DNA from: an uncultured archaeon
GTDB lineage: Archaea > Altiarchaeota > Altiarchaeia > IMC4 > SCGC-AAA252-I15
Direction of reading: 5' to 3'
DNA length: 15,961 bases
NCBI GenBank assembly: GCA_964587725.1
Contig: CAZPLO010000026.1
Location: 1 to 15,961, forward strand
In this document: piece after piece, positions 643 to 15,961 of the stretch
How the letters are laid out: each line of letters opens with the position of its first letter
How positions within the stretch are numbered: the first letter of the stretch is position 1
Notes under the pieces: generated by a model
Seen by the model: only the letters and a program-made list of their open reading frames with translations
Told to the model about the DNA's origin: nothing
The model's database searches: none
Made by a program: the position numbers and the translations under genes

Positions 643-2820
643 ATGAAAGACAAGAGACTGCTTGTTTTCGCCGCGTTAACGCTGCTCACATACCTCATAG
701 GCTACCACGCCTTCATACTGCACCGGAACATATTCACCTGGATACAGTACATCCACTACATCACCCCCGCCCACATCATACTGTTCACGTTGGTGGCGTT
801 GGCGGCGGCAATGTACCTGGGAAAAATACGGGTGCCGGTGGAGAGGCGGCCGCTGCTGCTCGCGGGCCTGGCGGTATTGATGGCAGTCCCCTTCTGGAAC
901 CTGCCGCAGTTCAACCCCGACTCAGCCCAATACTATGCAACCGCACGTTACCTGCAGGAGACGGGGTTCACCGGACTGTCGACGCTGAAGGAAGCCGGCT
1001 ACGAAGACCTGCCGGGGTACCCGCTGCTCCTGTCACTAGTGTACAGGATACATGAGGGGTATGTGTCGACTCAGCTGCTACACATCCTACTGTATGCGCT
1101 CATACCCCTGCTGGTCTACGGCATCGGCAAAAACCTGTGGGACATTGACACCGGATACTACGCCGGCCTCCTTGCATTGGCGACGCCATTGATACACAGC
1201 AACCACTGGTTCCTCCTGCAGGACCTGCCGCTCACCGCATTCACCCTACTGTCGATATACGCGACGTTGAAGGCGTTCGACGACACCAGATGGCTTGCCA
1301 TAGCGGTGCCGGCGGCCGCCTTCACAGTGACATTGAAGGTAACGGGCCTACTCTATCTCGGGGCGACGTTACCGGTCATCGTGATATTAAAGATGCTGGA
1401 GAGATACGACCGGAGGAACGTGGTGAAGGCTGCTGGGGCGGCAGCCATACTGTTCGTTGTCCTGACGGCCATCGCATTGTCCACCACCCAGCTGGGGGAC
1501 AGGGTGATGGAGAAGGCGAAGGTGGTGGGGCTGGAAAATAACCTCCGCAGGTTCACCGGCATAGGCAACAACCACCCCACATTCGGCCTGCCGTACGACA
1601 TAGGGTTCCCGCAGACACTATTGTTCCTCGCCTTCATCCCATTGTCGCTGAAAAAATGGGACCGCAGACACTGGCTGCTGTATCTGTGGCTTATCATACC
1701 GTTCATGGTGGCGCATGACACCAAAACACGCTATCTGATGCCGCTGTTTCCGGCGATTTCACTGGCTGCCGCGCAGGCGGTGAAACGAGTGGGTGACAAG
1801 AAGATGGTGTATTTCACCGCCGCAGTAATCGCGCTGCCGACGCTGTTCGCCGTACCAGCAATATCCAACGACTACGAAATACGGAACCTGCAGGAGCTTG
1901 CGTTGGAGACCAACGGCATGGACGTTTCAACCGTCGGAGTCTACGCATACCACATTCCAAGATACATATTCAACCAGCACGAGCTCGCGTCCATGACAGA
2001 CTACTACACACACAAGAATGTGGTGTTCCTCGGCGGCTACCCCCTGTACGAGGAGGGCGCTTACAGAAACTTCATGGGGTGGGCGTACGGCAGCAACAGA
2101 AAGTACCAGGGGATACTCGGCACACTCTACCCGAATCTGAACCTGAACGGCGAACACCTCCTCGACAACTACACCTACGTCGGTGAATCATCAGGCGGCG
2201 CATACCACATGCGCAACACATACTACGCCCGACTCTACAGGCTGAGGGAGGGGATGTCGGGGCCCGTTGACGCGTTACTGTACCTGTCCAACGTGGAAGC
2301 ATGGCAGCCGGAAATCAACAAAACCTCGTTCTGCAGCAGTTACGCGGTGAACTTCTACTGCATGGAGTACGCCGACTGGAAGAAGAAAACATTCAGCCAG
2401 ACATACCGTATCGGCCCCATAGCGTTCGCGTCGACGTACGGGAAAGACATCGGCAGCTGGCTGGGGGAAAACATGCTGTACATGAAGCCGCCGGACGTCG
2501 GACAAGTCAACAGCACATACCGTCTCACAATACCGGGGGACACTGTCTTGAGGTTCAGCGTCAGCCTCCACCCCGAAACCTGGCACCCCATGAAAGGCGA
2601 CGGAGTCGAGTTCACCGTGTTGGCGGACTCCGAAACAATATACCAAAAGTACGTTGACCCGAAAAACAACCCAGGAGACAGGAGACTGCACGAGGAGGAA
2701 GTCGACGTCACCCGCTACTGGAACCGGACAGTAGACCTGGTGTTCATGACCCGCAGCGGCCCCTCCAACGACAGCAGATACGACACCGCAGGATGGGGTA
2801 ACCCGAGGTTGGTGGAATGA
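643..2820 (+). CDS. Polytopic GT-C-fold (ArnT/PMT_2, GT39/GT83-like) glycosyltransferase with an extracellular C-terminal beta-sandwich (NPCBM/galactose-binding-like) domain
   Basis: About 12-13 hydrophobic helices. NPDSAQYYATA follows the third TM segment; PGYPLLLS, LLQDLPLTAF and RYLMPLFP motifs are present. The C-terminus has GDGVEFTV...VDLVFMT.SGP...YDTAGWGNPRL and several N-x-S/T sequons. Confidence 0.75.
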   Translation: MKDKRLLVFAALTLLTYLIGYHAFILHRNIFTWIQYIHYITPAHIILFTLVALAAAMYLGKIRVPVERRPLLLAGLAVLMAVPFWNLPQFNPDSAQYYATARYLQETGFTGLSTLKEAGYEDLPGYPLLLSLVYRIHEGYVSTQLLHILLYALIPLLVYGIGKNLWDIDTGYYAGLLALATPLIHSNHWFLLQDLPLTAFTLLSIYATLKAFDDTRWLAIAVPAAAFTVTLKVTGLLYLGATLPVIVILKMLERYDRRNVVKAAGAAAILFVVLTAIALSTTQLGDRVMEKAKVVGLENNLRRFTGIGNNHPTFGLPYDIGFPQTLLFLAFIPLSLKKWDRRHWLLYLWLIIPFMVAHDTKTRYLMPLFPAISLAAAQAVKRVGDKKMVYFTAAVIALPTLFAVPAISNDYEIRNLQELALETNGMDVSTVGVYAYHIPRYIFNQHELASMTDYYTHKNVVFLGGYPLYEEGAYRNFMGWAYGSNRKYQGILGTLYPNLNLNGEHLLDNYTYVGESSGGAYHMRNTYYARLYRLREGMSGPVDALLYLSNVEAWQPEINKTSFCSSYAVNFYCMEYADWKKKTFSQTYRIGPIAFASTYGKDIGSWLGENMLYMKPPDVGQVNSTYRLTIPGDTVLRFSVSLHPETWHPMKGDGVEFTVLADSETIYQKYVDPKNNPGDRRLHEEEVDVTRYWNRTVDLVFMTRSGPSNDSRYDTAGWGNPRLVE

Positions 2821-4055
2821 ACGTCGCATTGGTTACGGTGGACTGTCTCCGCGCCGACCACCTCGGATGCTACGGCTACGGCAGGGAAACGCCGAACATA
2901 GACGCATTGGCCGGGAAGGGGCTGAGGTTCACTCACGCATACGCGAACGCACCCTACACGCCGGGGTCGTTCCTGTCACTGTTCACGTCACACCACCCCC
3001 TAGACTTCAAACAGATGCTGCCGCTGCCCCCCGCCTCTAACCCGCTGCCGGAGGTGTTGGGCATTGAGTCGGCGGCGGTCCACTCCAACCCGCTGCTGTC
3101 AAGACACTACGGATACCAGCGGGGGTGGAACAGGTTCGAAGACCACCTGAACAGCGGGGGCGGCGTATCCCCGGCAAAGTATCTCCCCCGCAAACTCCGG
3201 CTGCTGGCGGACCTGTACTTCGGAGGCGGCCCATACGCCGGCGCGGAAACAATAACAGGGAAGGCGCTGCGGCACATCCATGATATGGGGGAGCCGTGGT
3301 TCATGTGGGCTCATTACATGGACCTGCACCATCCCCTGCGTCTTCCCCCTGAGAGGAAGCACACGGAAAATATGTCGTTGTCGACGCGGATGCGTCTGCT
3401 GGAGAACCCCACCAAAGACTCGGACCCGTCGCTGAAGCAGGGTGTGGTGGACGCATACGACGACAACCTCCGGCACATTGACTCGCAGGTGGGCCGGCTT
3501 GTGGAAGCGGCTGAAGACACGGTCTTCATCGTCACCGCAGACCACGGGGAAGAATTCCTCGAGCACGGAGGATACGGCCACAGACCCAAACTATACAACG
3601 AACTACTGCATGTTCCATTGATTCTCTCCGGCCCCGGCGTCGAATCCGGCGTCAGGGAGGGCCTCGTATCCCACGTCGACGTCGCACCCACCATACTGTC
3701 CCTGTACGGTCTGAAGCCGCCGGAAGACTACGTGGGGGAAAACCTCTTCACCGGCGGGAAAAAATACGTGTTCAGCGAGGCACTGCATAATGAGCGCGGC
3801 CAGTTCATAGAAGACGACCGTGTCTTAACCGCAGGCTACGTCAGCTATGCGGTGCAGTCGCGGGAGCTGAAGCTGATTAAGACCTTCAAAGGCGGGGAAT
3901 TGGTCGGCAGGGAACTCTACAACCTCCTGGAGGACCCGGGGGAGACGGTGAACCTAACGGAAGACTCGCCGCTGGAGAAAGAACTCGACCGCCACATCCA
4001 AAGCAGGATGCTGAGGGAGGCGGCCGACAGAGTCTCCGAAGACGAACGTTTGTGA
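2817..4055 (+). CDS. Sulfatase-like hydrolase/transferase (alkaline phosphatase superfamily) with Thr at the nucleophile position
   Basis: NVALVTVDCLRADHLGCYGY..TPNID, HYMDLHHP, TADHGEEF.EHG, LHVPLI, DVAPTIL and ELYNL..DPGE..NL motifs. ATGA overlap with the upstream gene. Confidence 0.88.
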   Translation: MNVALVTVDCLRADHLGCYGYGRETPNIDALAGKGLRFTHAYANAPYTPGSFLSLFTSHHPLDFKQMLPLPPASNPLPEVLGIESAAVHSNPLLSRHYGYQRGWNRFEDHLNSGGGVSPAKYLPRKLRLLADLYFGGGPYAGAETITGKALRHIHDMGEPWFMWAHYMDLHHPLRLPPERKHTENMSLSTRMRLLENPTKDSDPSLKQGVVDAYDDNLRHIDSQVGRLVEAAEDTVFIVTADHGEEFLEHGGYGHRPKLYNELLHVPLILSGPGVESGVREGLVSHVDVAPTILSLYGLKPPEDYVGENLFTGGKKYVFSEALHNERGQFIEDDRVLTAGYVSYAVQSRELKLIKTFKGGELVGRELYNLLEDPGETVNLTEDSPLEKELDRHIQSRMLREAADRVSEDERL

Positions 4056-4061
4056 AAGAAT

Positions 4062-4934
4062 TCACTCTAGTAGTTTCAGCAGCATCGCCTTCTGGGCGTG
4101 CATCCTGTTTTCGGCCTGGTCGAAGACGATAGAGTTACTGCTGTCCAGCACTTCGTCGGTGACTTCCTGTCCGCGGACGGCGGGGAGGCAGTGCATGAAC
4201 AGCCGGTCACCCAACAGTTCGCCGGTCACCCGGTAACCCCTGAGGTCCTTAACCCTTTTTTCCTTCTCTGCTTCGTCGCCCATGCTCACCCACGTGTCCG
4301 TGTACACGATGTCCGCGTCCTCCACCGCCTCAACCGAGTCCCTGGTTAAGGTGAGGCCGTGCTTCAAACCGAAGTCGACAACCTCCGGGTCTGGCCCGTA
4401 GCCTTCGGGAGTCGCCACCGTAACCTTAGCACCTACTTTGCAGCAGCCGAGGATTAGGGAGTTGCAGACGTTGTTGCCGTCCCCCACGTATGCGAGGTGG
4501 AAGTCGTATGACCCTGTTTTCTCGTAGGCTGTCATCAAATCAGCCAGCGCCTGGCAGGGGTGGAAGCGGTCGCACAGTCCGTTGACCACCGGCACCTCCG
4601 CGGCCGCGGCTATGTCCAGTATCTCCCGGTGGCGGGACACCCTCGCCATTAATACGTCGCAGTACCGGTCCAGGCATCTGACCTCGTCCTGCAGTCTACC
4701 TTTGGTGAAGTTGGTGGTCCGCCAGTCCAGGTATATTGCGTCGCCCCCCAGCTGGTACATTCCGGCTTCGAAGCTGCACCGCGTCCTAGTCGACGGCTTC
4801 ATGAACAGCATAATAAGTGTTTTGCCGTCGAGTCTGCCGCGGAAGGAGTCTACGTCAGACTTCACTTCCAAGGCGTCGCCTATGACGCCTTTAACCCATT
4901 TTCCGCTGTAGTCCCCGAGTGTCAGCAAATCCAT
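4062..4934 (-). CDS. argF: Ornithine carbamoyltransferase
   Basis: F.KPSTRTR.SFE (carbamoyl phosphate binding), HPCQALAD, GDGNNV, YTDTWVSMG, FMHCLP and DQAENRMHAQKA. Confidence 0.96.
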   Translation of the reverse strand: MDLLTLGDYSGKWVKGVIGDALEVKSDVDSFRGRLDGKTLIMLFMKPSTRTRCSFEAGMYQLGGDAIYLDWRTTNFTKGRLQDEVRCLDRYCDVLMARVSRHREILDIAAAAEVPVVNGLCDRFHPCQALADLMTAYEKTGSYDFHLAYVGDGNNVCNSLILGCCKVGAKVTVATPEGYGPDPEVVDFGLKHGLTLTRDSVEAVEDADIVYTDTWVSMGDEAEKEKRVKDLRGYRVTGELLGDRLFMHCLPAVRGQEVTDEVLDSSNSIVFDQAENRMHAQKAMLLKLLE

Positions 4935-4967
4935 TTACACGCCTTTATTGGATTACGGGTTGAAAAA

Positions 4968-6068
4968 CTAAAGGAGTCTCCGGTCGAATCGTTCGTCCAC
5001 GTACTTGCTCAACGCGTCCAAGGCCACGTCGAGGCCGTGTTTCTCCGCCTCCTTGAGGGACGCCCCGCGTTTGCTTTCGTAGAACTCCTGGTCCTCGTAC
5101 AGCCTGTCCACTGCTTCAGTCCACGCGTCCACATTCGCAGTGGAAAGTTTGATGCCTGCGTCGCCCGCCGCCTCAGCCGCGCCGCCCACGTCCGAAACAA
5201 CCACGGGCAGGCCGTTAGCCAAAGCCTCCAACACGGTGCGGGGGTAGTTGTCCGCCATAGAAGAAGGCGCCAACAGAATGCGGGCGCGTCCGTACACCGG
5301 CTTCATGTCATCGACGCGGCCCAGGTACTCGACGTTCGGCTCTTCAGCGAGCCACATGTAGTCTCTGTCGAGTCCGCCTGCCAATGTGAAACGCCTCTTC
5401 CGCATATTCTTTACCAGTTCCGCCACCAAGGCAACCCCCTTGTGTTTCACCGGGTTCACGAACAGTATACTGTCGCCCTGCTGGTCCGACACGTATTTCT
5501 CCAAGTCCACTATCATCGGCAGCACATCCGGCTCCACGCCCGTGTAATGCTCGGTCACCTCCCGCATGAACCTGCTTTGGGTGACGACGGCGTCCGCCTC
5601 TTGAATGGCCCTGCGGTTGCGGTCGTAGATGACCTTATACGCGGGGTACCGTATCAACCCTTGAACGCCTTCGCAGCGCCAGCACCGCTGCCTGCAATAC
5701 ACCTCCCCCTGCTTGAAGGAGTCGAGGCAGAAGTGCTCGAAACTCCGCACGTACATGAGACACGGTATGCCCCTGCCTTTACACCAGAAGACGGTCGGCG
5801 CCGCCGCATTCACCTGCGTCAGCACCAGGTCGGGCTTGAAGCCGAGGCGGTTCAAGTACCTGCTCCAGAACAGATTCACGTACAGTATGTTGTTCCAGCA
5901 GCCGACTTCATGGACGCGAACCCCGTTCCAGTCGTAATCCCCGCCTTTCCCGGACGCGAGGACGTGGACTTCATGGCGGGCAGCCAGCTCCCGCAGCAGC
6001 GTCTGCGCGCACAGCTCCGCGCCCCCCACATAGTTCAGGAAATGCTGGGCCGAAAACAGTATCCGCAT
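4968..6068 (-). CDS. GT4 family (GT-B fold) glycosyltransferase
   Basis: MRIL...GGAE N-terminus, KGV, and PS..DNYPRTVLEALANGLPVVVSDVGG..E. Start is 6068 (MRILF) or 6077. Confidence 0.9.
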   Translation of the reverse strand: MRILFSAQHFLNYVGGAELCAQTLLRELAARHEVHVLASGKGGDYDWNGVRVHEVGCWNNILYVNLFWSRYLNRLGFKPDLVLTQVNAAAPTVFWCKGRGIPCLMYVRSFEHFCLDSFKQGEVYCRQRCWRCEGVQGLIRYPAYKVIYDRNRRAIQEADAVVTQSRFMREVTEHYTGVEPDVLPMIVDLEKYVSDQQGDSILFVNPVKHKGVALVAELVKNMRKRRFTLAGGLDRDYMWLAEEPNVEYLGRVDDMKPVYGRARILLAPSSMADNYPRTVLEALANGLPVVVSDVGGAAEAAGDAGIKLSTANVDAWTEAVDRLYEDQEFYESKRGASLKEAEKHGLDVALDALSKYVDERFDRRLL

Positions 6069-6109
6069 AGTATCCATCAGGATTTAACGTCTAAAAACCT
6101 TTCCTAAAC

Positions 6110-7222
6110 ATGGTCGACTCCCGGATTCCCATGAGGTTGGCTGCCGTCTTCATACTGTATACGGTGGTGCTCGCCTCCTACTCACTAGCCTACACCGGAA
6201 GCCTGGATGTGACGGCGTTCATCCACGCCGGGGAAAACCAGACCCTACTGAAAGGCATACAGTACGATGGAGTCTACGTATACCCCGGTTTGGACGGATA
6301 CGACGGACAATACTACTACCACATAGCACGCAATCCCTTCAACATAGCGGATGTAGCGCGAATCGAGTCGCCGCAGTACAGGTACCAGCGGATACTGTAT
6401 CCGCTGCTGGTGTACGTATTGTCGCTTGGCCAAGCCTCCGCAGTCCCGTATGTGATGCTGGCGGTGAACCTCGCATGTGTCTTGGCTGCCGCGTACCTGT
6501 ACATGAAATGGGCTGGCAGACACTGGTTCTATGCCGCATTCATCCCCGGGGTTTTCGTGTCGGTCATACTCGACCTCGCCGAGCCGCTGTGGTTCCTGCT
6601 GACGTTGGCTGCGCTGTGGGCGAGCAGCAGGGAAGAGCACTGGGGGTCCGCATTCCTGTTCGGCCCCGCGTTGTTCACGAAGGAGATGACCCTGTTCATC
6701 GTCGCACCCCTCGGCCTAGCGTATATCCTGAAGAGGCGTTACCGTGAGGCTGCTCCTTACGCGTTGCTGGCGATACCGTTTCTCGCATGGCAGCTGACGC
6801 TGCTGCCGTTGTTCGGTAAGCTGCCGGTTCAGCACAGTGGAAGGTTCGTGTTCTCGGGAACAGGATATGTGGAAGCGTTCACGGCGGTTGTTTCAAACCC
6901 GTCGCTCCACAAACTACCCGTCCCCCTACTTCAGCTGTCCATTATACCCGCCGCGTACGTCGCATACAGGGCGTTGAAGCGGAAGACGCCGCTGGCGTAT
7001 GCGCTAGCATTCAACGCCGCCGTAGTGTTCCTGTTCCAGAAGGGCCTGTGGGTGGATTTGAACGCCGCCGCCAGAAACATCCTCCCACTGTCGACGATGC
7101 TGCTCGCATACTATGCGGTGGAACACGACGGGAGAATCCATTATGCGGCGGCCCCGCAGATTATTGTAACGGCGGCTGCAGCATCCTTCTATGTGGTGAA
7201 GGCGTTTAACGCGGTTTTCTGA
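6110..7222 (+). CDS. Polytopic membrane protein, GT-C-like cell-surface glycopolymer protein (GYDGQ-YY / YRxQRILYP family)
   Basis: GYDGQYYYHIARNP and PQYRYQRILYPLL motifs in the first loop, then EPL and TKE motifs and ~10 TM helices. Confidence 0.7.
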   Translation: MVDSRIPMRLAAVFILYTVVLASYSLAYTGSLDVTAFIHAGENQTLLKGIQYDGVYVYPGLDGYDGQYYYHIARNPFNIADVARIESPQYRYQRILYPLLVYVLSLGQASAVPYVMLAVNLACVLAAAYLYMKWAGRHWFYAAFIPGVFVSVILDLAEPLWFLLTLAALWASSREEHWGSAFLFGPALFTKEMTLFIVAPLGLAYILKRRYREAAPYALLAIPFLAWQLTLLPLFGKLPVQHSGRFVFSGTGYVEAFTAVVSNPSLHKLPVPLLQLSIIPAAYVAYRALKRKTPLAYALAFNAAVVFLFQKGLWVDLNAAARNILPLSTMLLAYYAVEHDGRIHYAAAPQIIVTAAAASFYVVKAFNAVF

Positions 7223-8294
7223 GGATGTTCAGGAGTTCTTCCGCCGTCTTGCTCCACGGGTATTGTCCGGCGGTCTTGATTCCGGCGGCGCCCATCTTGT
7301 ACGCCAAAACATCGTCTTCAATGAGTTTGTTCACTCTCCCCGCGATGTTCTCCGGCGTAGGGTCGACGAGGAAGGAGTCGACGCCGTCGGAGAGGACTTC
7401 CGTGAACCCGCCCTCCAGGCATCCTATCACCGGGGTGCCCTGGGCGAGGGACTCCAGGGGCACCAGCCCGAACGGCTCCCTCACCGGCGTGTACACGGTG
7501 CACAAACTCCCCCGGTATAGTCTGTCTAGTTCGTCGCCGAATTTCACGCCAGTGAACTCCACCCTATCCGTCAACCCAAGGTCGTCGGCAATCCTACGCA
7601 GCCCCCCCTCATACCCGCCTTCACCGACAACCTTCAGCTTAACGTCTTCGGGGAGGTGCCGGAGGCACCGGATGGCGAGGTCGACGCGTTTCTCCGGCAT
7701 GAGACGGTTCACACACAATATGTAACCGCCGTCTTTTCCCGCGGGCTTGTCTGCGACGCCGTCAACCCCCATGTACACCACCTCATCTGCGCGGCCGTAC
7801 ACCCTCCGCAGGTAGTCTGCGGAGTACCTGCTGTTCGCGACGACCGAGTCCACCCTGATTCTTTTGTCCACCGACCTCAGGTAGGGGAAAACCAGCTTCA
7901 TCAGGAGTTTCTTGTGGAACCCCAGGTCATCGCGTCTCATGAGTTCCGGGTAGAGGTCGTACAGCATCCTCGGCGGCTCCTGCGGATACCACACCGACGG
8001 GTGCCGGTCCACCAAGTGGGTGGGGTACAGTACCATGAGATAGGCGTCATGTAAGCCGACAGACCCCCCGTACTGTTTCATGAACAGGGATGACAGGAAC
8101 CGGAGGGAACGCTGTTTGGGCATATGTGCCCGAACCTCCACGTACTCGGCGTCCAACCCCCTCAGAAGCCGGCTGTCGGCCGACATCGAATAAAGGGTGA
8201 CGTCGTGTCCGCTCCACTGCTCCATCACCTTCAGCCCGAACTTTTCCGCGCCGCCCACGGTGTCGAAGAAAGGGTATAGTACGGCGATGTCCAT
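7206..8294 (-). CDS. GT4 family glycosyltransferase
   Basis: GGAEK, VANSRYS, VNRLMPEKRVD and EPFGLVPLESLAQGTPVI. Confidence 0.93.
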   Translation of the reverse strand: MDIAVLYPFFDTVGGAEKFGLKVMEQWSGHDVTLYSMSADSRLLRGLDAEYVEVRAHMPKQRSLRFLSSLFMKQYGGSVGLHDAYLMVLYPTHLVDRHPSVWYPQEPPRMLYDLYPELMRRDDLGFHKKLLMKLVFPYLRSVDKRIRVDSVVANSRYSADYLRRVYGRADEVVYMGVDGVADKPAGKDGGYILCVNRLMPEKRVDLAIRCLRHLPEDVKLKVVGEGGYEGGLRRIADDLGLTDRVEFTGVKFGDELDRLYRGSLCTVYTPVREPFGLVPLESLAQGTPVIGCLEGGFTEVLSDGVDSFLVDPTPENIAGRVNKLIEDDVLAYKMGAAGIKTAGQYPWSKTAEELLNILRKPR

Positions 8295-8332
8295 GCATAT
8301 TATTAAGTCCTCCTAGTTTAATGTACCCAAGA

Positions 8333-9406
8333 ATGGAGGCTGTGGTACTGCACGACTACTTGTCGAACATCGGCGGCGGGGAGAAGCTGATGCTGTCGCT
8401 GGCTAGGGCGTTGGATGCGGACTTCGCAACACTGGATTTGAACCGGGACGTGGTTGAGGACGTGGGGTACGGTGACGTGAAGTTCATAGACCTGGGTTCG
8501 ACGGTTAAGAAGCCGCCGCTGAAGCAGCTGCACGCGTCGCTGAAATACCGGCTCGCGAAACTCGACTACGACGCCTACATGTTCAGCGGGAACTGGAGCC
8601 ACTACGCGGCAGTGAACAGTCACCCCAACATCTGGTACTGCCACACGCCCGTCCGCGCCTTCTACATAGACTGGGAGAACATAAGAGACGGCATGAACCC
8701 GGTTCAACGGCTGATATATGATGTGTGGGTTGCGTTTCACAGCAGGTGGGACAGGAAGTCGGTTAAACACGTCGACAAAATAATCGCCAACAGCAACAAC
8801 ACACGGGACAGGATAAAGAGGGTCTACGGCCGGGAGTCCACGGTCGTGTACCCCGGCGTCGACACCGGCAGGTTCAAATACCTGGGTGACGGCGGATACT
8901 GGCTGAGCGTTAACAGAATCTACCCGGAGAAGAGGATACGCCTGCAGGTTAACGCGTTCGAGCGCATGCCTGACCGGAAACTTGTCATAGTCGGAGGGTC
9001 GCTCGCAGGAGACCACAGCAGCCGACACGCCAGTGAACTACTCGATAATCTGCCGCCGAACGTCGAATACCGTGGAAGGGTTTCAGAGGACGAGCTCGCG
9101 GAACTCTACGGACGCTGCACAGGCTTCATATGCACTGCCGTGGACGAAGACTTCGGGATGACGCCCGTGGAGGCGATGGCCGCCGGCAAACCAGTGGTCG
9201 CGACCCGGGAAGGGGGATACCTGGAGACCGTGGTCGACGGGGAGACAGGGGTGCTGGCGGAAGCCGAGCCCATGTCCCTGAAGGCGGCGGTGGAGGAGAT
9301 TTCAGACAACCCAGACTCCTACAGGAGGGCGTGCGAACGGCGCTCCCGCGACTTCGACACCAGCGTTTTCATACAGTCGATGAAGGGGCAGCTGGAGGAC
9401 ATATAA
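8333..9406 (+). CDS. GT4 family glycosyltransferase (mannosyltransferase-like)
   Basis: LHDYL..IGGGEK, WYCHTP.R, IANS, VVYPGVD, SVNRIYPEKR and EDFGMTPVEAMAAGKPVVA. Start is 8333 (MEAVVLHD) or 8321. Confidence 0.93.
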   Translation: MEAVVLHDYLSNIGGGEKLMLSLARALDADFATLDLNRDVVEDVGYGDVKFIDLGSTVKKPPLKQLHASLKYRLAKLDYDAYMFSGNWSHYAAVNSHPNIWYCHTPVRAFYIDWENIRDGMNPVQRLIYDVWVAFHSRWDRKSVKHVDKIIANSNNTRDRIKRVYGRESTVVYPGVDTGRFKYLGDGGYWLSVNRIYPEKRIRLQVNAFERMPDRKLVIVGGSLAGDHSSRHASELLDNLPPNVEYRGRVSEDELAELYGRCTGFICTAVDEDFGMTPVEAMAAGKPVVATREGGYLETVVDGETGVLAEAEPMSLKAAVEEISDNPDSYRRACERRSRDFDTSVFIQSMKGQLEDI

Positions 9407-9441
9407 ACAAGTCCGCCAAGATATTACAGAGGCGGTTTCCG

Positions 9442-10119
9442 GTGCCGGACGAGGACAAAAAAAGCATGGTGGAGAAGCTCAAGAAAGAGCTCGCGAAGCT
9501 GGAGTGGGAGGAGAAGCTGCTCCGCAAGAGAGACGACCGTCTGAAGTGGGAGGAGGAGATGCTGGAGATGGAGGAGGGCCTCAAAACCAAGCGCGCAGAC
9601 TTCATGGAGAAAGCCCCACCTGAAATGCTGGAGAAAAAGGAGGAGGCTGAAGAACCGAAGGAATCCCATGTGGAGCCTGGCACAACCTACCTGCTGAAGG
9701 AGCAGAAGCCTGACCGGAGCAACCGAATATTCACGCAGCAGATGAACGCAGGCTACAAAGGCCTTTACATTACGCGCAGCAACCCCAAGCAGGTTAGGAA
9801 GAAATACGACCTCGGCGACGCCGACGTGTGCTGGCTCACCGGCGTGAAAACCGACGAAGACATAAAGTCGGTGTCGGGGCTGCAGGAGCTCAGCATCCTC
9901 GTCAGCAACTTCATAGACGAAAACAGCAAGAGCGTGATACTGCTGGACGGCCTCGAATACCTGATAAGCAACAACGACTTCCCCATCGTGTTAAGGCTTG
10001 TGCAGCAGATACGCGACAAAGTAAGCACGTCGGAATCCAACATGCTCATACCCTTGAATCCTGCGGCACTCGACGAACGTCAGGTCACGCTGCTGGAGCG
10101 GGAATGCGGCTCACTATAG
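9442..10119 (+). CDS. DUF835 (inactive KaiC/RecA-like ATPase) protein with an N-terminal coiled coil
   Basis: C-terminal GLYITRSNP...WLT...VILLDGLEYLI.NNDF..VLR....IRD.V....LIPLNP.AL.ERQ..LLERE, with no Walker A motif. Real start is likely GTG 9442 (GAGGCGG upstream) or ATG 9466; the ORF-track start at 9130 overlaps the GT4 gene. Confidence 0.85.
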   Translation: MPDEDKKSMVEKLKKELAKLEWEEKLLRKRDDRLKWEEEMLEMEEGLKTKRADFMEKAPPEMLEKKEEAEEPKESHVEPGTTYLLKEQKPDRSNRIFTQQMNAGYKGLYITRSNPKQVRKKYDLGDADVCWLTGVKTDEDIKSVSGLQELSILVSNFIDENSKSVILLDGLEYLISNNDFPIVLRLVQQIRDKVSTSESNMLIPLNPAALDERQVTLLERECGSL

Positions 10120-10737
10120 CAGCTGCTCCGAAGGCCACAGCGGCTCCCGCTTCTCGTTGATTGGCGTCGGAGTCCTGAACTGCAGCGGCGTGGGGTTGCC
10201 GTGGTGAGGCACAAACACAATCCGCACGTCCTCGTCCTCGCCGATGCCGCCTGTCGTGTCAGCGGGCCCTGAACTGTAGTAGTTGAAACGCATCCGGATG
10301 ACATCGCCTCTCGTGAGGTAGCCGACGCGGTGGTCGCCGCTGGCCTTCACGTACTCGACCGTGAAGTCGGACGTGGTGGCGGCGTTCGAGGTGGTGTCGC
10401 CGGCGCTCTGGTTGTAGTATATGTTCTGGGTGTACTGTTTGGTGGTGACGACCACCACCATGTTGGTGAGGTTCATGAAGCTGCTGCCCGGCAGCAACCT
10501 AGCCAACACCTCGAAGTGTTCGATGTCCCGTCCGGCGCTGCCGTCGGTGCCCATCACATACATCACCTCCATGCCGGATGTGACGCTCTCCTCCGCCTCG
10601 AAGCTGCTTCGGACGGCGGTGGTCTGCAGGCCGCCGGTGGAGTAGATGATGACAACCGCCGCGATAGAGGAAACCAGTATGACCGCAACCAGTATGATGA
10701 GTGCGGCCACTCCGCTGAGACCCCTGTTACACCCCAT
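10114..10737 (-). CDS. flaB: Archaellin-like protein (divergent/minor archaellin)
   Basis: Class III signal peptide MGCNRG|LSGVAALIILVAVILVSSIAAVVII, then GGLQ...VTSGMEV..V.GTDG and LPGS..MNL. GGTGA SD at 10744-10748 (minus strand). Confidence 0.82.
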   Translation of the reverse strand: MGCNRGLSGVAALIILVAVILVSSIAAVVIIYSTGGLQTTAVRSSFEAEESVTSGMEVMYVMGTDGSAGRDIEHFEVLARLLPGSSFMNLTNMVVVVTTKQYTQNIYYNQSAGDTTSNAATTSDFTVEYVKASGDHRVGYLTRGDVIRMRFNYYSSGPADTTGGIGEDEDVRIVFVPHHGNPTPLQFRTPTPINEKREPLWPSEQLL

Positions 10738-11030: not shown

Positions 11031-11180
11031 ATGGTGATGTTTGAGGAAGGCGCCGGAGCGCCCAGGGGGGTTAGTGTACTGAGAGACCTCTTCAGTTTCT
11101 ACACGACGCTCGAACTATCTGCTCTGACGCGGATTTCACCTTGCCTTTGCGCTTCACCGCATGGGGGGTGTGTGAAGTGA
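11031..11180 (+). CDS. Possible 49-aa upstream ORF (leader peptide) coupled to flaC/D/E
   Basis: GGTGA SD at 11021-11025, ATG at 11031, and a stop TGA at 11178-11180 that overlaps the GTG start of the next gene (GTGA). Codon usage is atypical. Confidence 0.25.
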   Translation: MVMFEEGAGAPRGVSVLRDLFSFYTTLELSALTRISPCLCASPHGGCVK

Positions 11181-12718
11181 TAAAGGAGCTCCTCGACGGA
11201 CTCACGTCGAGGCTTAAGGGGGTTGGAGAGAAAGGGGGTGAGGTGCCGCCGGCGGGCGGCATACCCCCGGCCCCCGGAGAGGATGAAATGCCTCCGGCGG
11301 GGGGTGAGCAGGCCCCGGACGTCAAACCACAGGAGGGGGAGGAAGACTTCAGCGCCCTTCTCGGCGGTGGGGACACGTCTGAGCTGGAGAACAAGGTCAA
11401 GGAACTGGAGGACCGGACCGTGAAGCTGGAGTCTTCTGTGAAGGACACGCTGGACATCGCCAAACAAAACCAGGAGCGCCTGGACAGCATAGACGGGAAC
11501 ATGAAGAAGTTCATTTCACTGTATGAGCTGGTCACCAACCAGATTAACCCGTTCGTCGACCAGTCCCAGCCGTTCAAGGAGCCGGAGAAGCCTCCGCTGG
11601 AGGAGGCGGAGGAGAAGATTGTCATGCCGCCGGCGGAGGAACTGGAGAAGGAGGAGCCGGATGAGAAGGAAGAGGAGGTGAAGCCGGAGCCTAAGAAGGA
11701 GAAGCCGAAGCCGGCTCCAGCCCCCAACGTTCCCGAAGGAGACGAGGAGCAGGTGATGTTCCTGCAGTCGGTGAAGGACGGGAACGCGTCGTTCGTGCTG
11801 GAGTGGATTACGTCGCTGGTGAACGAGGAAGGCGACGTGGAAGAGAACACGAAATTACTGACGTATCTGCTGAACATGGGGTGGATTACGCCGAAGGCGT
11901 ATGAGGCGTTGATGCAGCACGTCCGCGCCATAGCGCAGGCCGGCAGGGTAGCGCAGCCCCAGCGGCAGAGGATTCCGCTGATGGCCGGGATGCCGTCGCA
12001 GATTCCGCAGACCGGGCAGCCGCCCGGCCTGGGCAGAGGGGCGCCGGTGTCGGCGGACGACAAGGGCTCGCTCATGGAGGTGCTGGAGTGGGTGAAGTAT
12101 TTGGTCGACAAAGTAGGCTCCGACGAGGCGGAGGAGATACTCAAGTACCTGGTGCAATTGGGTTGGATTACGCCGGACGCGCACAGGGCGCTGCTTAAAT
12201 ACATAGACCGGACGCTTCCCGAAGAGGCGTTGCAGCAGTTCCGGGAGCCGGAGGAGACCAAAGTGCAGCTGCCGCCGGACCGTATACCGAGTCCGGACGA
12301 GTTCATGCAGCGTGAGGCCCAATACAGGATGCCTGTGCAGCCGGTTCAGCAGCCGGTGCGGATGCCGTTCCAGCAGCCTGTAAGGAAGAGTCCGGAGAAC
12401 GAGATAATACCGTTGACTGAGATAGGCTCAGACATAGACTCACTCGCCATCGTGCTGGAGTGGATACGCTACCTCGTCGACCGGGCGGGGACGCAGGGTG
12501 CTAAGGACATATTCAACTACTACCTCAACATCGGGTGGGTGAGCCAGCAGGTGTACCAGCAGCTGGTCAAGTACGTGGACGGCATCAAGGCGAAGGAGGA
12601 GGAGACCGTCGGGTATCAGCCGACGGTTGAGGACCACGCCACATCCCTGTTTTTCATAAGCAGGCTGAAGCACATGGACTTGAGCGAGGAAGACATACAG
12701 AACATGCTGGGGAAATAA
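11177..12718 (+). CDS. flaC/D/E: Archaellum accessory protein: FlaC domain fused to three FlaD/E domains
   Basis: A coiled coil ending in SLYELVTNQINPFVD (FlaC signature), three VLEW..YLV....G....L.Y...GWI/V repeats, and a C-terminal EDHATSLFFI (FlaD/E). GTG 11177 has an upstream GGGGGGTG SD. Confidence 0.88.
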   Translation: MIKELLDGLTSRLKGVGEKGGEVPPAGGIPPAPGEDEMPPAGGEQAPDVKPQEGEEDFSALLGGGDTSELENKVKELEDRTVKLESSVKDTLDIAKQNQERLDSIDGNMKKFISLYELVTNQINPFVDQSQPFKEPEKPPLEEAEEKIVMPPAEELEKEEPDEKEEEVKPEPKKEKPKPAPAPNVPEGDEEQVMFLQSVKDGNASFVLEWITSLVNEEGDVEENTKLLTYLLNMGWITPKAYEALMQHVRAIAQAGRVAQPQRQRIPLMAGMPSQIPQTGQPPGLGRGAPVSADDKGSLMEVLEWVKYLVDKVGSDEAEEILKYLVQLGWITPDAHRALLKYIDRTLPEEALQQFREPEETKVQLPPDRIPSPDEFMQREAQYRMPVQPVQQPVRMPFQQPVRKSPENEIIPLTEIGSDIDSLAIVLEWIRYLVDRAGTQGAKDIFNYYLNIGWVSQQVYQQLVKYVDGIKAKEEETVGYQPTVEDHATSLFFISRLKHMDLSEEDIQNMLGK

Positions 12719-12747: not shown

Positions 12748-13197
12748 ATGGGCTTCAGCACCGTTGCTACGCAGCTGATATTCTTCATAGCCATACTGGG
12801 CATATCCGCTGGACTAATCTCTATCTTCTCAGGCTACGTCGACGAGGCGTCGGGGGCGATGTCCGACAAGCAGCAGCATATAACGGATCAGCTCCGCACC
12901 GACATCATTGTGACGAACATAGACAACAGCAGCGGCCACTTGCATGTGTTCGCGAAAAACATCGGCGACTACACGTTGGACACCGAATGCGTCGAACTCT
13001 ACGTAGACAGCGGATGGGTTAACCTGGGCGCCGCGCAGATCGTGGACCCCAGCACCGACACCGCAGTCACAGTCTGGGCGCCGGAGGACACCATCCAGTT
13101 GAAGCCCAGCACGGTGGCGTTGAACACCGACTCGATACACGAGGTGAAGGTGATAACATGCAACGGCATCTCCGACACCGAGGAGTTCTCCACCTAA
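12748..13197 (+). CDS. flaG: Archaellum stator protein FlaG/ArlG-like
   Basis: N-terminal TM segment with QLIFFIA, then QLRTDI, FAKNIG..TL, LYVD, W.PEDT and VKVITCNGIS. Confidence 0.8.
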   Translation: MGFSTVATQLIFFIAILGISAGLISIFSGYVDEASGAMSDKQQHITDQLRTDIIVTNIDNSSGHLHVFAKNIGDYTLDTECVELYVDSGWVNLGAAQIVDPSTDTAVTVWAPEDTIQLKPSTVALNTDSIHEVKVITCNGISDTEEFST

Positions 13198-13228: not shown

Positions 13229-13681
13229 ATGGGCTTGTCCACCACCTACGCCAACATGGTGTTGTTCGTGTTCATACTGTCGATACTCTACTTCCTGATG
13301 GGCGTGTACGGAGACTACCTCGGCGACACGTCGCCGGAGGTGAAGGCCCAGGCGGACAGGGTCCGCGGGCGCCTGGACACCACCATACTCCTGTCGTCGG
13401 CGACGACGGACGGCAACGACGTCATCATGTACGTGTTGAACAGCGGGAAGACGACGTTGGACCCGAACTGCACCGACTTCTACATAGACCGGGAGTGGAT
13501 TCCCCGCAGCAGCATAGACGAGCTCCGCATACTCAACACCTCTTTTGACCCGGGGCTGTGGAATCCGGACGAGACGCTGCGGATGCAGACACAGTACGAC
13601 ACCGACGACGGCCAACCCCACGAAGCCAAGGTTGTCGCGTGCAACGGCGCAATGGACAGCCGCATATTCTATCACACGTGA
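13229..13681 (+). CDS. flaF: Archaellum stator protein FlaF/ArlF-like
   Basis: MGLS + TM segment, RLDTTI, VLNSGKTTL, FYID, WNPDETL and KVVACNG. Confidence 0.78.
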   Translation: MGLSTTYANMVLFVFILSILYFLMGVYGDYLGDTSPEVKAQADRVRGRLDTTILLSSATTDGNDVIMYVLNSGKTTLDPNCTDFYIDREWIPRSSIDELRILNTSFDPGLWNPDETLRMQTQYDTDDGQPHEAKVVACNGAMDSRIFYHT

Positions 13682-13683
13682 AA

Positions 13684-14436
13684 ATGGGCTTAAGTTCTTT
13701 GACGGCGATGACGTCGCTCGCGTTCATAGTGTTGCTGACGGCCACCGGGCTGATGATGATGCAAGACGGTCGATCAGATATCGCAGCCAAAGACCGCGGC
13801 GGCATACTCGAGCAGGAGCGGAAGTCCCACGCATCCTTCACGGACTTCAACGCAACCAACATAACACTCTCCACCGTAAACGTCACCCTCTACCTCGAGA
13901 ACACGGGGTCGACGAACATGCGGGCGTCGTGCATGGACCTGTTCATAGACGACTCATGGGTTACCGTAACCGGCTCCAGGGTTGCGCCGGCCGCGTTCGA
14001 CCCGATGCTGTGGAACCCCTCCGAAACACTGTTGTTGAGCGCGGAGGAGAACCTGGCGGTCGGCGAACACAACGCCACCGTCATCACATGCGCGGGACAG
14101 CGCATAGAGGCGGTGTTCAACGCCAGCAGATGCGGCGACGGAATCTGCACGGGCGGCGAATACTGCAGCTCAGACGACGGAGCATGCGACCTCCTCTGCT
14201 ACTACACCCGCTGTGAAGACGGGTGCTTCCAGGAGCTTGTTCCCGCCGGCGGCACCGAAGCCACCGGCCTGCTGATATGCGATGAAACAGGCGCTGGATG
14301 CGACACAGACAGCTGCGTGTGCGACGGCGCGGGCGGATGCTGCGGCGCAGGCGGTTCATCGTGCAGCCAGGACAGCCAGTGCTGCTCCGGCAGCTGCCCC
14401 CCGCCGGGCCCGAAAACCTGCACCCCATACCCGTGA
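13684..14436 (+). CDS. FlaF-like paralogue with a C-terminal cysteine-rich (18 Cys) extension
   Basis: MGLSS + TM segment, LENTGST, LFID and WNPSETL, followed by CGDGIC...CCSGSC...C. ATG 13684 lies 2 nt after the flaF stop; the ORF-track start at 13558 overlaps flaF. Confidence 0.8.
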   Translation: MGLSSLTAMTSLAFIVLLTATGLMMMQDGRSDIAAKDRGGILEQERKSHASFTDFNATNITLSTVNVTLYLENTGSTNMRASCMDLFIDDSWVTVTGSRVAPAAFDPMLWNPSETLLLSAEENLAVGEHNATVITCAGQRIEAVFNASRCGDGICTGGEYCSSDDGACDLLCYYTRCEDGCFQELVPAGGTEATGLLICDETGAGCDTDSCVCDGAGGCCGAGGSSCSQDSQCCSGSCPPPGPKTCTPYP

Positions 14437-14514
14437 ACGCCAAAGATAGCCTTTTTAAATCGGTAATGTACAATAGTTTATACTGGTGGTTGGTTGATTC
14501 ATAAGGTGAAGGAC

Positions 14515-15642
14515 ATGAGTGAACACTCCGGCCCCAGCAAAACAGTCAAAGTAGCCTCAATACTTCTTCTGCTAGCGAATTACGCGTTAACCGCGTCCGC
14601 CGCACCCCTGGGGGCTGCGGAGATGACGGTGAGCAGGTTCTACTGGCTGTTCCTCATAGTAGTGTTGGCGGTGCTGTCGCTGATTTACATGTTCAGCAAG
14701 CAGGAGTCCCCCATCGAGGTGATGGGGTTGACGTACGACAAAACAACCCATCAGATGGAGTTGACGGTCAGGAACACGGGCAGCGAACGATACTGCATAC
14801 GCTCCGCACTGCGCCTGATGGCGCCGGCGCAGGAGGTCATAGACCAGGTGGCGGACGACGGCAACATACCCATGGCCGCCGCACGGGCGTCCGTCGGCGA
14901 CAGGAGCCTGTTCCAGCTGCTCTGTGAAGACGACTCGCCGGTGGTTTTGGAACCCAACGAAACCCGTACGCTGGCATACGACGTGCTGATGCCCGCTGAA
15001 ATGATCAACCTCGACTCCAGCAAAGACGTGGAAGTCCACATAAACTTCGGGGAACACAGGACACCTTCGATGCAGCCGCAGCCGGACGGACTGTGCATAC
15101 ATATGGGCTCCGGCGACGTCATAGCCGAAGCGTACCTGCTGGAGGATCTGCTGGGGGCGGTCCGGAACTCCTCCGACGACGTCATCGCACACCACATGGC
15201 GGACGGAAACGACTTCGCAGACTGGGTGAGAAACGTCCTCGGCGACGGGGGACTCGCAGACCAGCTGGACACCGTCGAACCCGGTCCGGAGGCGGGGGAG
15301 CGGCTGGCGTCGATACTGGACTCCAAGGTGGAGTCCCTCAAACACCCGTACCTGAGAAGGGTTCATCCGGAGAAGAAATTCCTGCTGAAGGCCGGCCACG
15401 ACGACGTGGTGTCGGAGATAACGGTGTTGGATGATTTGGCGGAGAAACTCGCCAAGGCATCCGCCGAGTCGGTGGCCTTCCACCTCCGCGACGGAAACGA
15501 CTTCGCCGCCTGGACACACTCCGTCGTCGGCGACGAAGAGCTCGCCGAACAACTGAACGGGATCGAATACGGCAGCCCGGAGGATGCGAGGGACAGGATG
15601 GTGTCCGCCATCAGAGCCCGCGTCGACTCCCTGAAAACCTGA
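14515..15642 (+). CDS. Membrane-anchored protein with an Ig-like beta-sandwich and two DUF5752-like repeats
   Basis: Signal-like segment (..ALTASA|A) and a TM helix, then ELTVRNTG...LEPNETRTL, then two repeats HH..GNDFADWVRNVLGD..LA..L and FH..GNDFAAWTHSVVGD..LA..L. AAGGTGA SD precedes ATG 14515. Confidence 0.72.
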   Translation: MSEHSGPSKTVKVASILLLLANYALTASAAPLGAAEMTVSRFYWLFLIVVLAVLSLIYMFSKQESPIEVMGLTYDKTTHQMELTVRNTGSERYCIRSALRLMAPAQEVIDQVADDGNIPMAAARASVGDRSLFQLLCEDDSPVVLEPNETRTLAYDVLMPAEMINLDSSKDVEVHINFGEHRTPSMQPQPDGLCIHMGSGDVIAEAYLLEDLLGAVRNSSDDVIAHHMADGNDFADWVRNVLGDGGLADQLDTVEPGPEAGERLASILDSKVESLKHPYLRRVHPEKKFLLKAGHDDVVSEITVLDDLAEKLAKASAESVAFHLRDGNDFAAWTHSVVGDEELAEQLNGIEYGSPEDARDRMVSAIRARVDSLKT

Positions 15643-15753: not shown

Positions 15754-15961
15754 ATGAGAAAACCAACCGACAACAGAGGTATGATGGGGATTGGGACACT
15801 GATAATATTCATTGCAGTGATCCTGGTTGCCGCAGTCGCCGCCGCCGTGTTGATTTCAACCGCGGGCAGCCTGCAGCAGAGGTCTTTGGCGACCGGTTCC
15901 CAAACGGAGGAGGGAGTCTCCACAGGAGCCGAGGCGGTTTCTGTGATGGCTACCGACGGAG
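15754..15961 (+). CDS. flaB: Archaellin, N-terminal part (truncated by the window end; absent from the ORF track)
   Basis: Manual translation gives MRKPTDNRG|MMGIGTLIIFIAVILVAAVAAAVLISTAGSLQQRSLATGSQTEEGVSTGAEAVSVMATDG, a canonical archaellin N-terminus. Confidence 0.95.
   Translation, partial: MRKPTDNRGMMGIGTLIIFIAVILVAAVAAAVLISTAGSLQQRSLATGSQTEEGVSTGAEAVSVMATDG

Follow-up and report, generated by a model that had tools for sequence, protein, structure and literature searches.

A third, cysteine-tailed member of the ArlF/ArlG (FlaF/FlaG) family is encoded beside an ordinary-sized ArlF/ArlG-like pair in the archaellum operon of an uncultured archaeon (Altiarchaeota; Altiarchaeia; IMC4; SCGC-AAA252-I15). 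The stretch of DNA analysed, hereafter the window, comprises the 15,961 nt at positions 1 to 15,961 of contig CAZPLO010000026.1 (assembly GCA_964587725.1, forward strand), in which the gene occupies 13684..14436 on the plus strand, stop codon included, and specifies a protein of 250 aa, P0001, assigned through its open reading frame (ORF), hidden Markov model (HMM) scores, homologues and Foldseek comparisons. Its tail consists of two separable modules that are reused on other surface proteins, both previously undescribed and both missing from Pfam, NCBIfam and the Protein Data Bank (PDB). The reading that we favour, with about as much doubt as conviction, is that P0001 provides a rigid, disulfide-stapled stalk or head tying the archaellum stator to an outer layer of the envelope. 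No ArlF/ArlG protein with an added domain was found described in the open-access literature, supplements excepted, including PMC8667602 and PMC13705601; this agrees with an earlier, sequence-only reading of the same DNA, which knew of no archaellum stator with such a domain.

There is no settled account of how the cell envelope holds the archaellum stator in place, and least of all for archaea that lack a regular S-layer. A conserved, extra ArlF/ArlG-like paralogue with an exchangeable, outward-facing head is a concrete and testable candidate for this link, in a phylum known for its double membrane.

Layout and authenticity of the tail

The ORF is open over 13558..14436 (+), with the ATG at 13684, 2 nt after the TGA of the preceding gene, as its plausible start. 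Residues 1-47 (13684..13824) comprise a hydrophobic N-terminal helix, the predicted membrane anchor, and a helical stalk, as judged from the sequence and from an AlphaFold model of the whole protein with a helix at residues 4-47. These lead into a beta-sandwich of archaellin/ArlF/ArlG type at residues 48-148 (13825..14127), with predicted strands over residues 50-147, a predicted local distance difference test score (pLDDT) of 75-89, structural matches in Foldseek, five N-glycosylation sequons and two conserved cysteines, C83 and C136. The tail proper, residues 149-250, starts RCGDGICTGGEYC and is divided into module A, a 12-cysteine domain at residues 150-219 (14131..14340) that begins CGDGICTGGEYC and is delimited by alignments and by its occurrence in other carriers, and module B at residues 220-246 (14341..14421), in which six cysteines are arranged as C-x6-C-x5-CC-x3-C-x7-C around a conserved CCSGxC core and whose spacing and profile give the sequence signature of an inhibitor cystine knot (ICK), or knottin. 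By script count, P0001 contains 20 cysteines, 18 of them within the last 102 residues; their codons run from 14131 to 14419-14421, with 4, 5, 6, 3, 4, 3, 17, 6, 4, 1, 5, 0, 6, 5, 0, 3 and 7 residues between successive cysteines. The background level in the 13 other long ORFs of the window is 0.9% (42 of 4631 residues). The tail further includes 19 glycines and 10 aspartates and is devoid of histidine and asparagine. The sequence-only reading had thus described the tail accurately, both in its 18 cysteines in about 100 residues, its wealth of aspartate and glycine and its opening motif, and in the span and spacing of the last six cysteines. As that reading also predicted, the tail is most likely extracellular.

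A search of 5.8 billion proteins returned ten homologues of P0001, 231-254 residues long and sharing 36-62% identity over 90-100% of the query. Aligned with these, all 18 tail cysteines and both sandwich cysteines are invariant, as is the junction FNAS-x-C-x-D-x-x-C-x-GGEYC, and the tail is at least as well conserved as the beta-sandwich in eight of the ten, the exceptions being P0009 and P0010. The tail is present in additional copies as well, both in metagenome contigs and in four more Altiarchaeota genomes. At the level of DNA, 13600-14500 is matched without difference or indel by contigs of four sequencing runs from one study of a microbial mat metagenome, two of which are possibly the source of the window's DNA itself; an independent contig (X3) spans 13881-14500, while a hole at 14375-14405 in the X4 run carries no meaning. 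Because the cysteines are invariant among homologues and the contigs of four runs agree, the tail is not considered an artefact of assembly or a frameshift, a possibility that the sequence-only reading had raised against itself and that deserves almost no weight.

Two modules shared with other surface proteins

A search for the same tail on other surface proteins had been suggested, and both modules were indeed found on such proteins. With phmmer, the tail retrieved seven proteins at E<=0.001 from 1.84 billion representatives. The tail had no Pfam match at E<=10 and no NCBIfam match at E<=1, and a profile of the whole tail (A2) found no match in the PDB at E<=10. In the ESM Atlas, the best score for the tail was 0.79, too low to be of use, and there was no structure for it.

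Module A is a unit of 67-70 residues containing 12 cysteines, or 10 in a shorter variant, with the consensus CGDGxCxGGEYCxxDxxxCxDNxCYxPxCxNGC...C...C....CxC.....C and a CYxPxCxxGC core. It is found without module B, singly or repeated, in archaeal surface proteins with pilin-type N-termini and downstream PKD or LamG/pentraxin-type domains (P0014, P0015, P0021, P0023 and L013), and its 10-cysteine variant forms arrays in the lipoproteins L039 and L040. C206 and C211 are jointly missing from the 10-cysteine variants of L013, L039 and L040, which suggests that they pair with each other. In the metagenome contigs carrying L039 (3065-5155) and L040 (2843-4396), 10-cysteine units resembling module A alternate with a second cysteine-rich unit, C.DG..N.DETD.DCGGSC..CG.GK.C..D.DC.SGDC....C, for which L039 gave no Pfam match.

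Module A itself had no match in Pfam, NCBIfam or the PDB. The sequence-only reading had likened the start of the tail to the myxobacterial cysteine-rich CGDG repeat, and this holds for the opening motif, CGDGxCxxGExC, which is common to the Myxococcus cysteine-rich repeat and DUF4215 (PF13948, TIGR02232) and to the CGDGxC...DCGxC repeats of Polyangiales (L005). It does not extend to membership of DUF4215 or TIGR02232: those repeats lack the CYxPxCxxGC core of module A, and none of the 29 family members in alignment A3 matched DUF4215 at E<=1, in a Pfam scan that does pick up this family in a true carrier, P0024. As there are no HMM matches, the resemblance is limited to the opening motif, itself a common one: CGDGxCxGGE was located no fewer than 609 times across the genomes searched.

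Module B likewise occurs elsewhere. Proteins of a pilin-like family, 621 residues in length (P0018, L011, L012 and L034), end in module A and module B with two residues between them, and three further proteins of the window's own genome, all secreted, threonine-rich and lipoprotein-like (L045-L047), have module B at their very C-terminus. These are paralogous open frames of 327, 270 and 225 aa, at C4:36128-37108, C32:2334-3143 and C36:8703-9377 on the minus strand of their contigs, and they end in GRCC-x6-C-x5-CCSGxC-x7/8-C; L045, the one compared with Pfam, had no match there. Since the module ends four proteins of one genome, a C-terminal sorting signal was considered, and rejected because the tail is internal in longer homologues of P0001. 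This internal position also indicates that the tail is directed outwards from the anchoring helix.

These longer homologues differ in what follows the tail. In P0016, P0017, L032 (2211-3800) and L035 (2-2086)/L036, it is succeeded by poly-threonine linkers and by a cysteine-containing domain of approximately 170 residues, present once or twice, with the motif ...SFPD.C.G.YP..C....L.CDD...E...A.....CG..., for which Pfam offered nothing beyond a weak, galactose-binding-like hint (E 0.013). In L004/L010, the poly-threonine linkers are accompanied by a different, sequon-rich stretch. Some of the linkers exceed 100 residues.

A knottin signature in module B

The six cysteines of module B are invariant in all 17 module copies, and their spacing falls inside the ICK consensus, CX3-7CX3-6CX0-5CX1-4CX4-13C. 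When a profile of these 17 copies (A6) was compared with all PDB sequences, 50 matches were obtained at E<=10, the best of them marginal (7.3e-4, 1.1e-3 and 1.6e-3). Judging by their names, we take nearly all of these to be ICK peptides of spiders, cone snails, scorpions, nemerteans and plants, with a few Dickkopf domains among them. In the alignments printed with ICK peptides, all six cysteines are in register. As a control for mere richness in cysteine, a module A profile built from 18 copies (A7) was run against the PDB and gave no match at E<=10. Single members of A3, 29 of which were scanned, also produced sub-threshold Pfam matches to Toxin_18 (0.0026), UPF0506, Toxin_29 and Toxin_12. 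The proposal that the tail ends in a knottin-like motif was therefore borne out at the level of a sequence signature, in that the profile finds almost exclusively cystine-knot peptides in the PDB.

If module B is a true cystine knot, it would count as one of the earliest knottins to be recognised in an archaeon. The KNOTTIN database paper gives knottins as still missing from archaea in 2017 (PMC5753296), and a knottin predictor published in 2015 is reported to have found none among archaeal PDB chains (PMC4491269). A knottin signature is thus present in a domain of life where, by the former account, such peptides were missing. Modules A and B alike are compact and probably of high stability, and their expression and structure determination should be easy.

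Predicted fold of the tail and state of its cysteines

In the AlphaFold model of the whole protein, computed with 11 sequences, the tail received a pLDDT of 30-48. Modelled by itself with 29 alignment rows, it reached a mean pLDDT of 79, rising to about 90 across residues 60-100, and a predicted template-modelling score of 0.67; its only regular secondary structure consists of short strands. The tail is therefore predicted to be folded, and the disordered state that the sequence-only reading had named as grounds for abandoning its proposal is not what the tail-only model suggests. With this model, Foldseek found no PDB entry at E<=10 and VIA-align none of 48,161 chains at Z>=2. Because tiny, irregular, disulfide-rich domains score poorly in such comparisons, these null results do not show a new fold.

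The cysteines of the tail are likely to be disulfide-bonded, given that their number is even in each module (12 and 6), that cysteines are lost in pairs, that there is no histidine, CxxC or Fe-S-type motif in the tail, that module B bears the ICK signature and that a DsbA-type protein is encoded in the genome. Paired loss is seen in the sandwich too, C83 and C136 being jointly missing in the homologue P0013. The oxidoreductase (L048, at C3:366-1208 on the minus strand) bears a CPYC motif and, at its N-terminus, a membrane anchor, and matches Thioredoxin_4 (4.2e-27) and DSBA (PF01323, 1.1e-24). Downstream of it, at C3:4-639 on the same strand, lies a gene for a small membrane protein with the pattern CC..P.C..C ... 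C.C ... C..C, a possible partner. A check for oxidases of the DsbA or VKOR type had been proposed, and its outcome is divided: the DsbA-type protein is present, while VKOR was not found in the genome, which is 92% complete, in a search that did not cover DsbB and DsbD. That the cysteines instead bind metal, or act as redox-active surface thiols of an anaerobe, seems very improbable. Known Altiarchaeota live in anoxic, reducing settings in which exposed disulfides would be at risk, and the missing VKOR would fit such a view; the pairwise losses, the lack of metal-site motifs, the ICK-type spacing with its profile matches and the membrane-anchored DsbA-type protein all point to disulfides. The sequence-only reading had allowed for calcium binding, and no known calcium motif was seen in the tail, although no search was aimed at this property.

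Family membership, operon and distribution

P0001 had no Pfam match. NCBIfam ranked ArlF first (5e-9, 36.4 bits) and ArlG second (6.2e-7, 29.5 bits), against a curated cut-off of 110 bits, and the neighbouring paralogues are below the ArlF/ArlG cut-off as well (65.2 and 42.5 bits against 110). The HMM scores do not allow any of the three paralogues to be assigned to ArlF rather than to ArlG, or the reverse. Foldseek comparison of the whole-protein model placed archaellum filaments first (E 1.4e-5), followed by FlaG (5tuh; E 1.2e-4, with a template-modelling score of 0.65 on the target), FlaF/FlaG (5tug; 3e-4) and FlaF (4p94; 7.2e-4). The N-terminus, MGLSSLTAM..., shares its MGLSS start with both neighbouring paralogues and is, to judge by its residues, free of a charged class III leader, unlike the archaellin at 15754, which starts MRKPTDNRGMMGIGTLI; in the archaellins of the window a charged leader stands ahead of GIGTLI. 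The label 'FlaF-like' given by the sequence-only reading is consequently correct insofar as this is an ArlF/ArlG-type protein of an archaellum operon, and wrong insofar as it implied a modified FlaF: P0001 is a third paralogue next to a pair of ordinary size.

The gene is situated downstream of one for an ArlC/ArlD/ArlE fusion protein (525 aa; 11141..12718, +; Pfam Arch_fla_DE 6.8e-45, FlaC_arch 8.1e-11), the first of a co-oriented run, and has archaellin genes nearby. Between the two are paralogue 1 (149 aa; 12748..13197, +; Pfam Arch_flagellin 2.2e-7, NCBIfam ArlF 6.8e-18 and ArlG 3.3e-15) and paralogue 2 (150 aa; 13229..13681, +; NCBIfam ArlF 6.8e-11 and ArlG 8.6e-7). The order paralogue 1, paralogue 2, cysteine-tailed paralogue, DUF5752 protein and then, where the contig continues, archaellin recurs at eight loci (L004/L010, L036/L035, L038, L032, L007, L008 and L009), synteny having been read within the limits of each contig; ArlC/D/E heads the order in loci of relatives as well. 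On a different contig, the same genome encodes a true ArlI (716 bits; cut-off 550). Co-folding of the soluble domains of the three paralogues scored 0.34, compared with 0.65 for a control, and is no evidence either way on whether they assemble.

Among 61 genomes of the phylum, including that of the window (G000), the ArlF/ArlG-like N-terminal domain was detected in nine at E<=1e-5, the ArlD/E family (PF04659) in seven, the 102-residue tail in eight and the module B profile, at a per-genome E<=0.01, in 21. The tail is attached to an ArlF/ArlG-like protein in five of the eight tail-positive genomes (G000, G034, G037, G038 and G050) and to different proteins in the other three. Within the window's taxonomic family, five of the six genomes with ArlF/ArlG-like genes have the cysteine-tailed paralogue; in the sixth (G040), the gene is ended by the contig after 100 residues. 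In the only other genome of the genus (G051; 10 contigs, 90% complete), neither the ArlF/ArlG-like domain nor the tail nor ArlD/E was detected, and the archaellum therefore seems patchy even at this level. In G011, from another family of Altiarchaeota, three ArlF/ArlG-like genes again stand in a row (L041, G011:C10:36500-42500); a lectin domain, Laminin_G_3 (4e-22), is part of the middle one (ORF 1714-3108, 465 aa), and an ArlH-like gene for a KaiC-type ATPase follows directly. G008 and G009 each have two ArlF/ArlG-like paralogues only. The second of these (L043, 1221-1697, and L044, 999-1472, respectively) ends in ...FY(T/A)CCG, a conserved C-terminal Cys-Cys-Gly.

Possible roles of the tail

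According to two papers, ArlG assembles into filaments in the periplasm, with ArlF as their cap, and the binding of ArlF to the S-layer keeps the motor from rotating within the membrane (PMC12448462, PMC8667602). The former, a 2025 study, describes anchoring by ArlF and ArlG without an S-layer as an open question and reports that a special binding motif was sought in the ArlF of S-layer-less Thermoplasmatales and none found. For Ca. Altiarchaeum, PMC4500143 describes a double membrane whose outer components are unknown. Under the reading that we favour, a third membrane-anchored ArlF/ArlG member would be made from the same operon as the ordinary-sized pair and would join the ArlF/ArlG assembly through its sandwich domain. 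Its 18 tail cysteines could form nine disulfides, yielding a stalk that is short, rigid and resistant to proteases and that ends in a small head for binding, and the tail would then reach and hold an outer envelope layer, such that the motor would not spin uselessly in the membrane. This role would parallel the S-layer binding ascribed to ArlF in Sulfolobus, and relatives appear to meet the same task with a LamG lectin domain or with extra domains on poly-threonine linkers. An outward-facing, head-carrying function is suggested because longer homologues bear domains beyond the tail and because G011 has a lectin-headed paralogue.

Several observations weigh against this reading. The ArlF/ArlG HMM scores of P0001 are far under the curated cut-offs (36 against 110 bits), as are those of its neighbours, and its placement in the stator and its binding to the envelope are inferred rather than observed. 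A third paralogue is not required, since the archaellum-bearing G008 and G009 have two only. Both modules are also present on proteins unrelated to motility and may be generic spacers without a specific ligand, and the very long poly-threonine linkers of some homologues fit a reach beyond the cell better than the bridging of a narrow periplasm. The matches of module B to ICK peptides are marginal (E 7e-4 to 10) and owe much to cysteine spacing, the confidently predicted tail model corresponds to no PDB entry, be it a knot or a known binding fold, and VKOR is missing from what is assembled of the genome. Finally, the double membrane is that of Ca. Altiarchaeum and may not hold for the window's lineage.

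Some of the same evidence bears on a different proposal, in which the protein acts outside the motor as a surface adhesin or tether: the ArlF/ArlG-type domain would be a mere anchor, and the tail would attach to surfaces outside the cell, to the matrix of the mat or to partner cells, so that swimming and sticking would be linked. The use of module A between pilin-like N-terminal domains and PKD or LamG/pentraxin-type domains (P0014, P0015, P0021 and P0023), the occurrence of module B at the ends of three other secreted proteins of the genome, the capacity of the long linkers to extend far from the cell and the microbial-mat metagenomes from which the DNA came are all in keeping with it. The tight and conserved position of the gene behind two ArlF/ArlG-like genes, with a gap of 2 nt, speaks for a function with them instead, and the version in the window has no domain past its 102-residue tail and no class III signal peptide for entry into a filament; we regard an adhesin as possible, but would not expect it. 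The absence of this peptide also bears on whether P0001 might be a minor archaellin-like subunit at the base or tip of the filament, with the tail as a cysteine-rich knob. Its fold is common with archaellins, archaellum filaments are its best Foldseek matches and paralogue 1 passes the Pfam Arch_flagellin cut-off; yet its N-terminus resembles those of its ArlF/ArlG-like neighbours and not those of the archaellins in the window, and NCBIfam ranks ArlF and ArlG first, making a filament subunit improbable.

The stator-head reading can be taken further, into a version that we consider rather unlikely as a whole. Here, module B would be a true cystine knot stacked on the new 12-cysteine domain, and in Altiarchaeota the third paralogue would be a stator protein in its own right, which would grip an outer layer of the envelope by this end and so secure the motor; the layer might be the outer one of two membranes. 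Such a protein would belong to a larger class, as yet undescribed, of ArlF/ArlG paralogues whose heads (cystine-knot, lectin or jelly-roll-like) suit the stator to one type of envelope or another.

Other features of the window

Directly after the cysteine-tailed paralogue is a gene for a DUF5752 membrane protein (14494..15642, +; Pfam DUF5752 2.4e-15), recognised also by synteny and with a likelier start at the ATG at 14515, behind GGTGA; its product comprises two DUF5752-type repeats. Because this gene is conserved directly after the cysteine-tailed paralogue and ahead of an archaellin gene, it may encode an undescribed archaellum accessory protein. The archaellin gene that follows in the window (15754..15961, +; PF01917 match at 15778-15948) is represented by its 5' part, ended by the contig, and another lies on the opposite strand at 10114..10737 (-; Pfam Arch_flagellin 7.2e-20). 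Ahead of the operon is a DUF835 gene (9130-10119), with a similar ORF at the same place in L004 and L036. The region 643-9406, beside the archaellum genes, encodes a PMT_2-type glycosyltransferase, a sulfatase-family protein, three GT4 glycosyltransferases and a surface-glycopolymer formation protein (NF046093). This glycosyltransferase cluster may modify archaellins or envelope glycans.

Comparison with known systems

The closest known counterparts of P0001 are stator proteins, ArlF and ArlG of S. acidocaldarius (4P94, 5TUH and 5TUG) and the ArlG filament of P. furiosus described in PMC8667602, which share with it an N-terminal membrane helix, an archaellin-type beta-sandwich and a gene position straight behind arlC/D/E, beside further members of the family. 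The proposed role, anchoring of the motor to the envelope, is also common to both; by contrast, P0001 is 100 residues longer, ends in two disulfide-rich modules and is a third paralogue. Similarly, the set of three ArlF/ArlG-like genes in G011 resembles that of the window in that one member bears an outward-facing extra module, although the head there is a lectin domain of the LamG/ConA type, whereas that of P0001 is made of two cysteine-rich modules in which no lectin fold was detected. Modular type IV pilins of archaea and bacteria with C-terminal adhesive domains, among them the module A carriers P0015, P0021, P0023 and L013, likewise combine a pilin-type helix and sandwich with add-on modules, from which P0001 is set apart by its lack of a class III signal peptide and its stator position in an archaellum operon. 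With ICK mini-proteins, such as the venom peptides of spiders, cone snails and scorpions and the knottins of plants, module B shares its six-cysteine spacing and CCSGxC core; those are free, secreted peptides, whereas module B is a domain, with a putative knot, within larger archaeal surface proteins.

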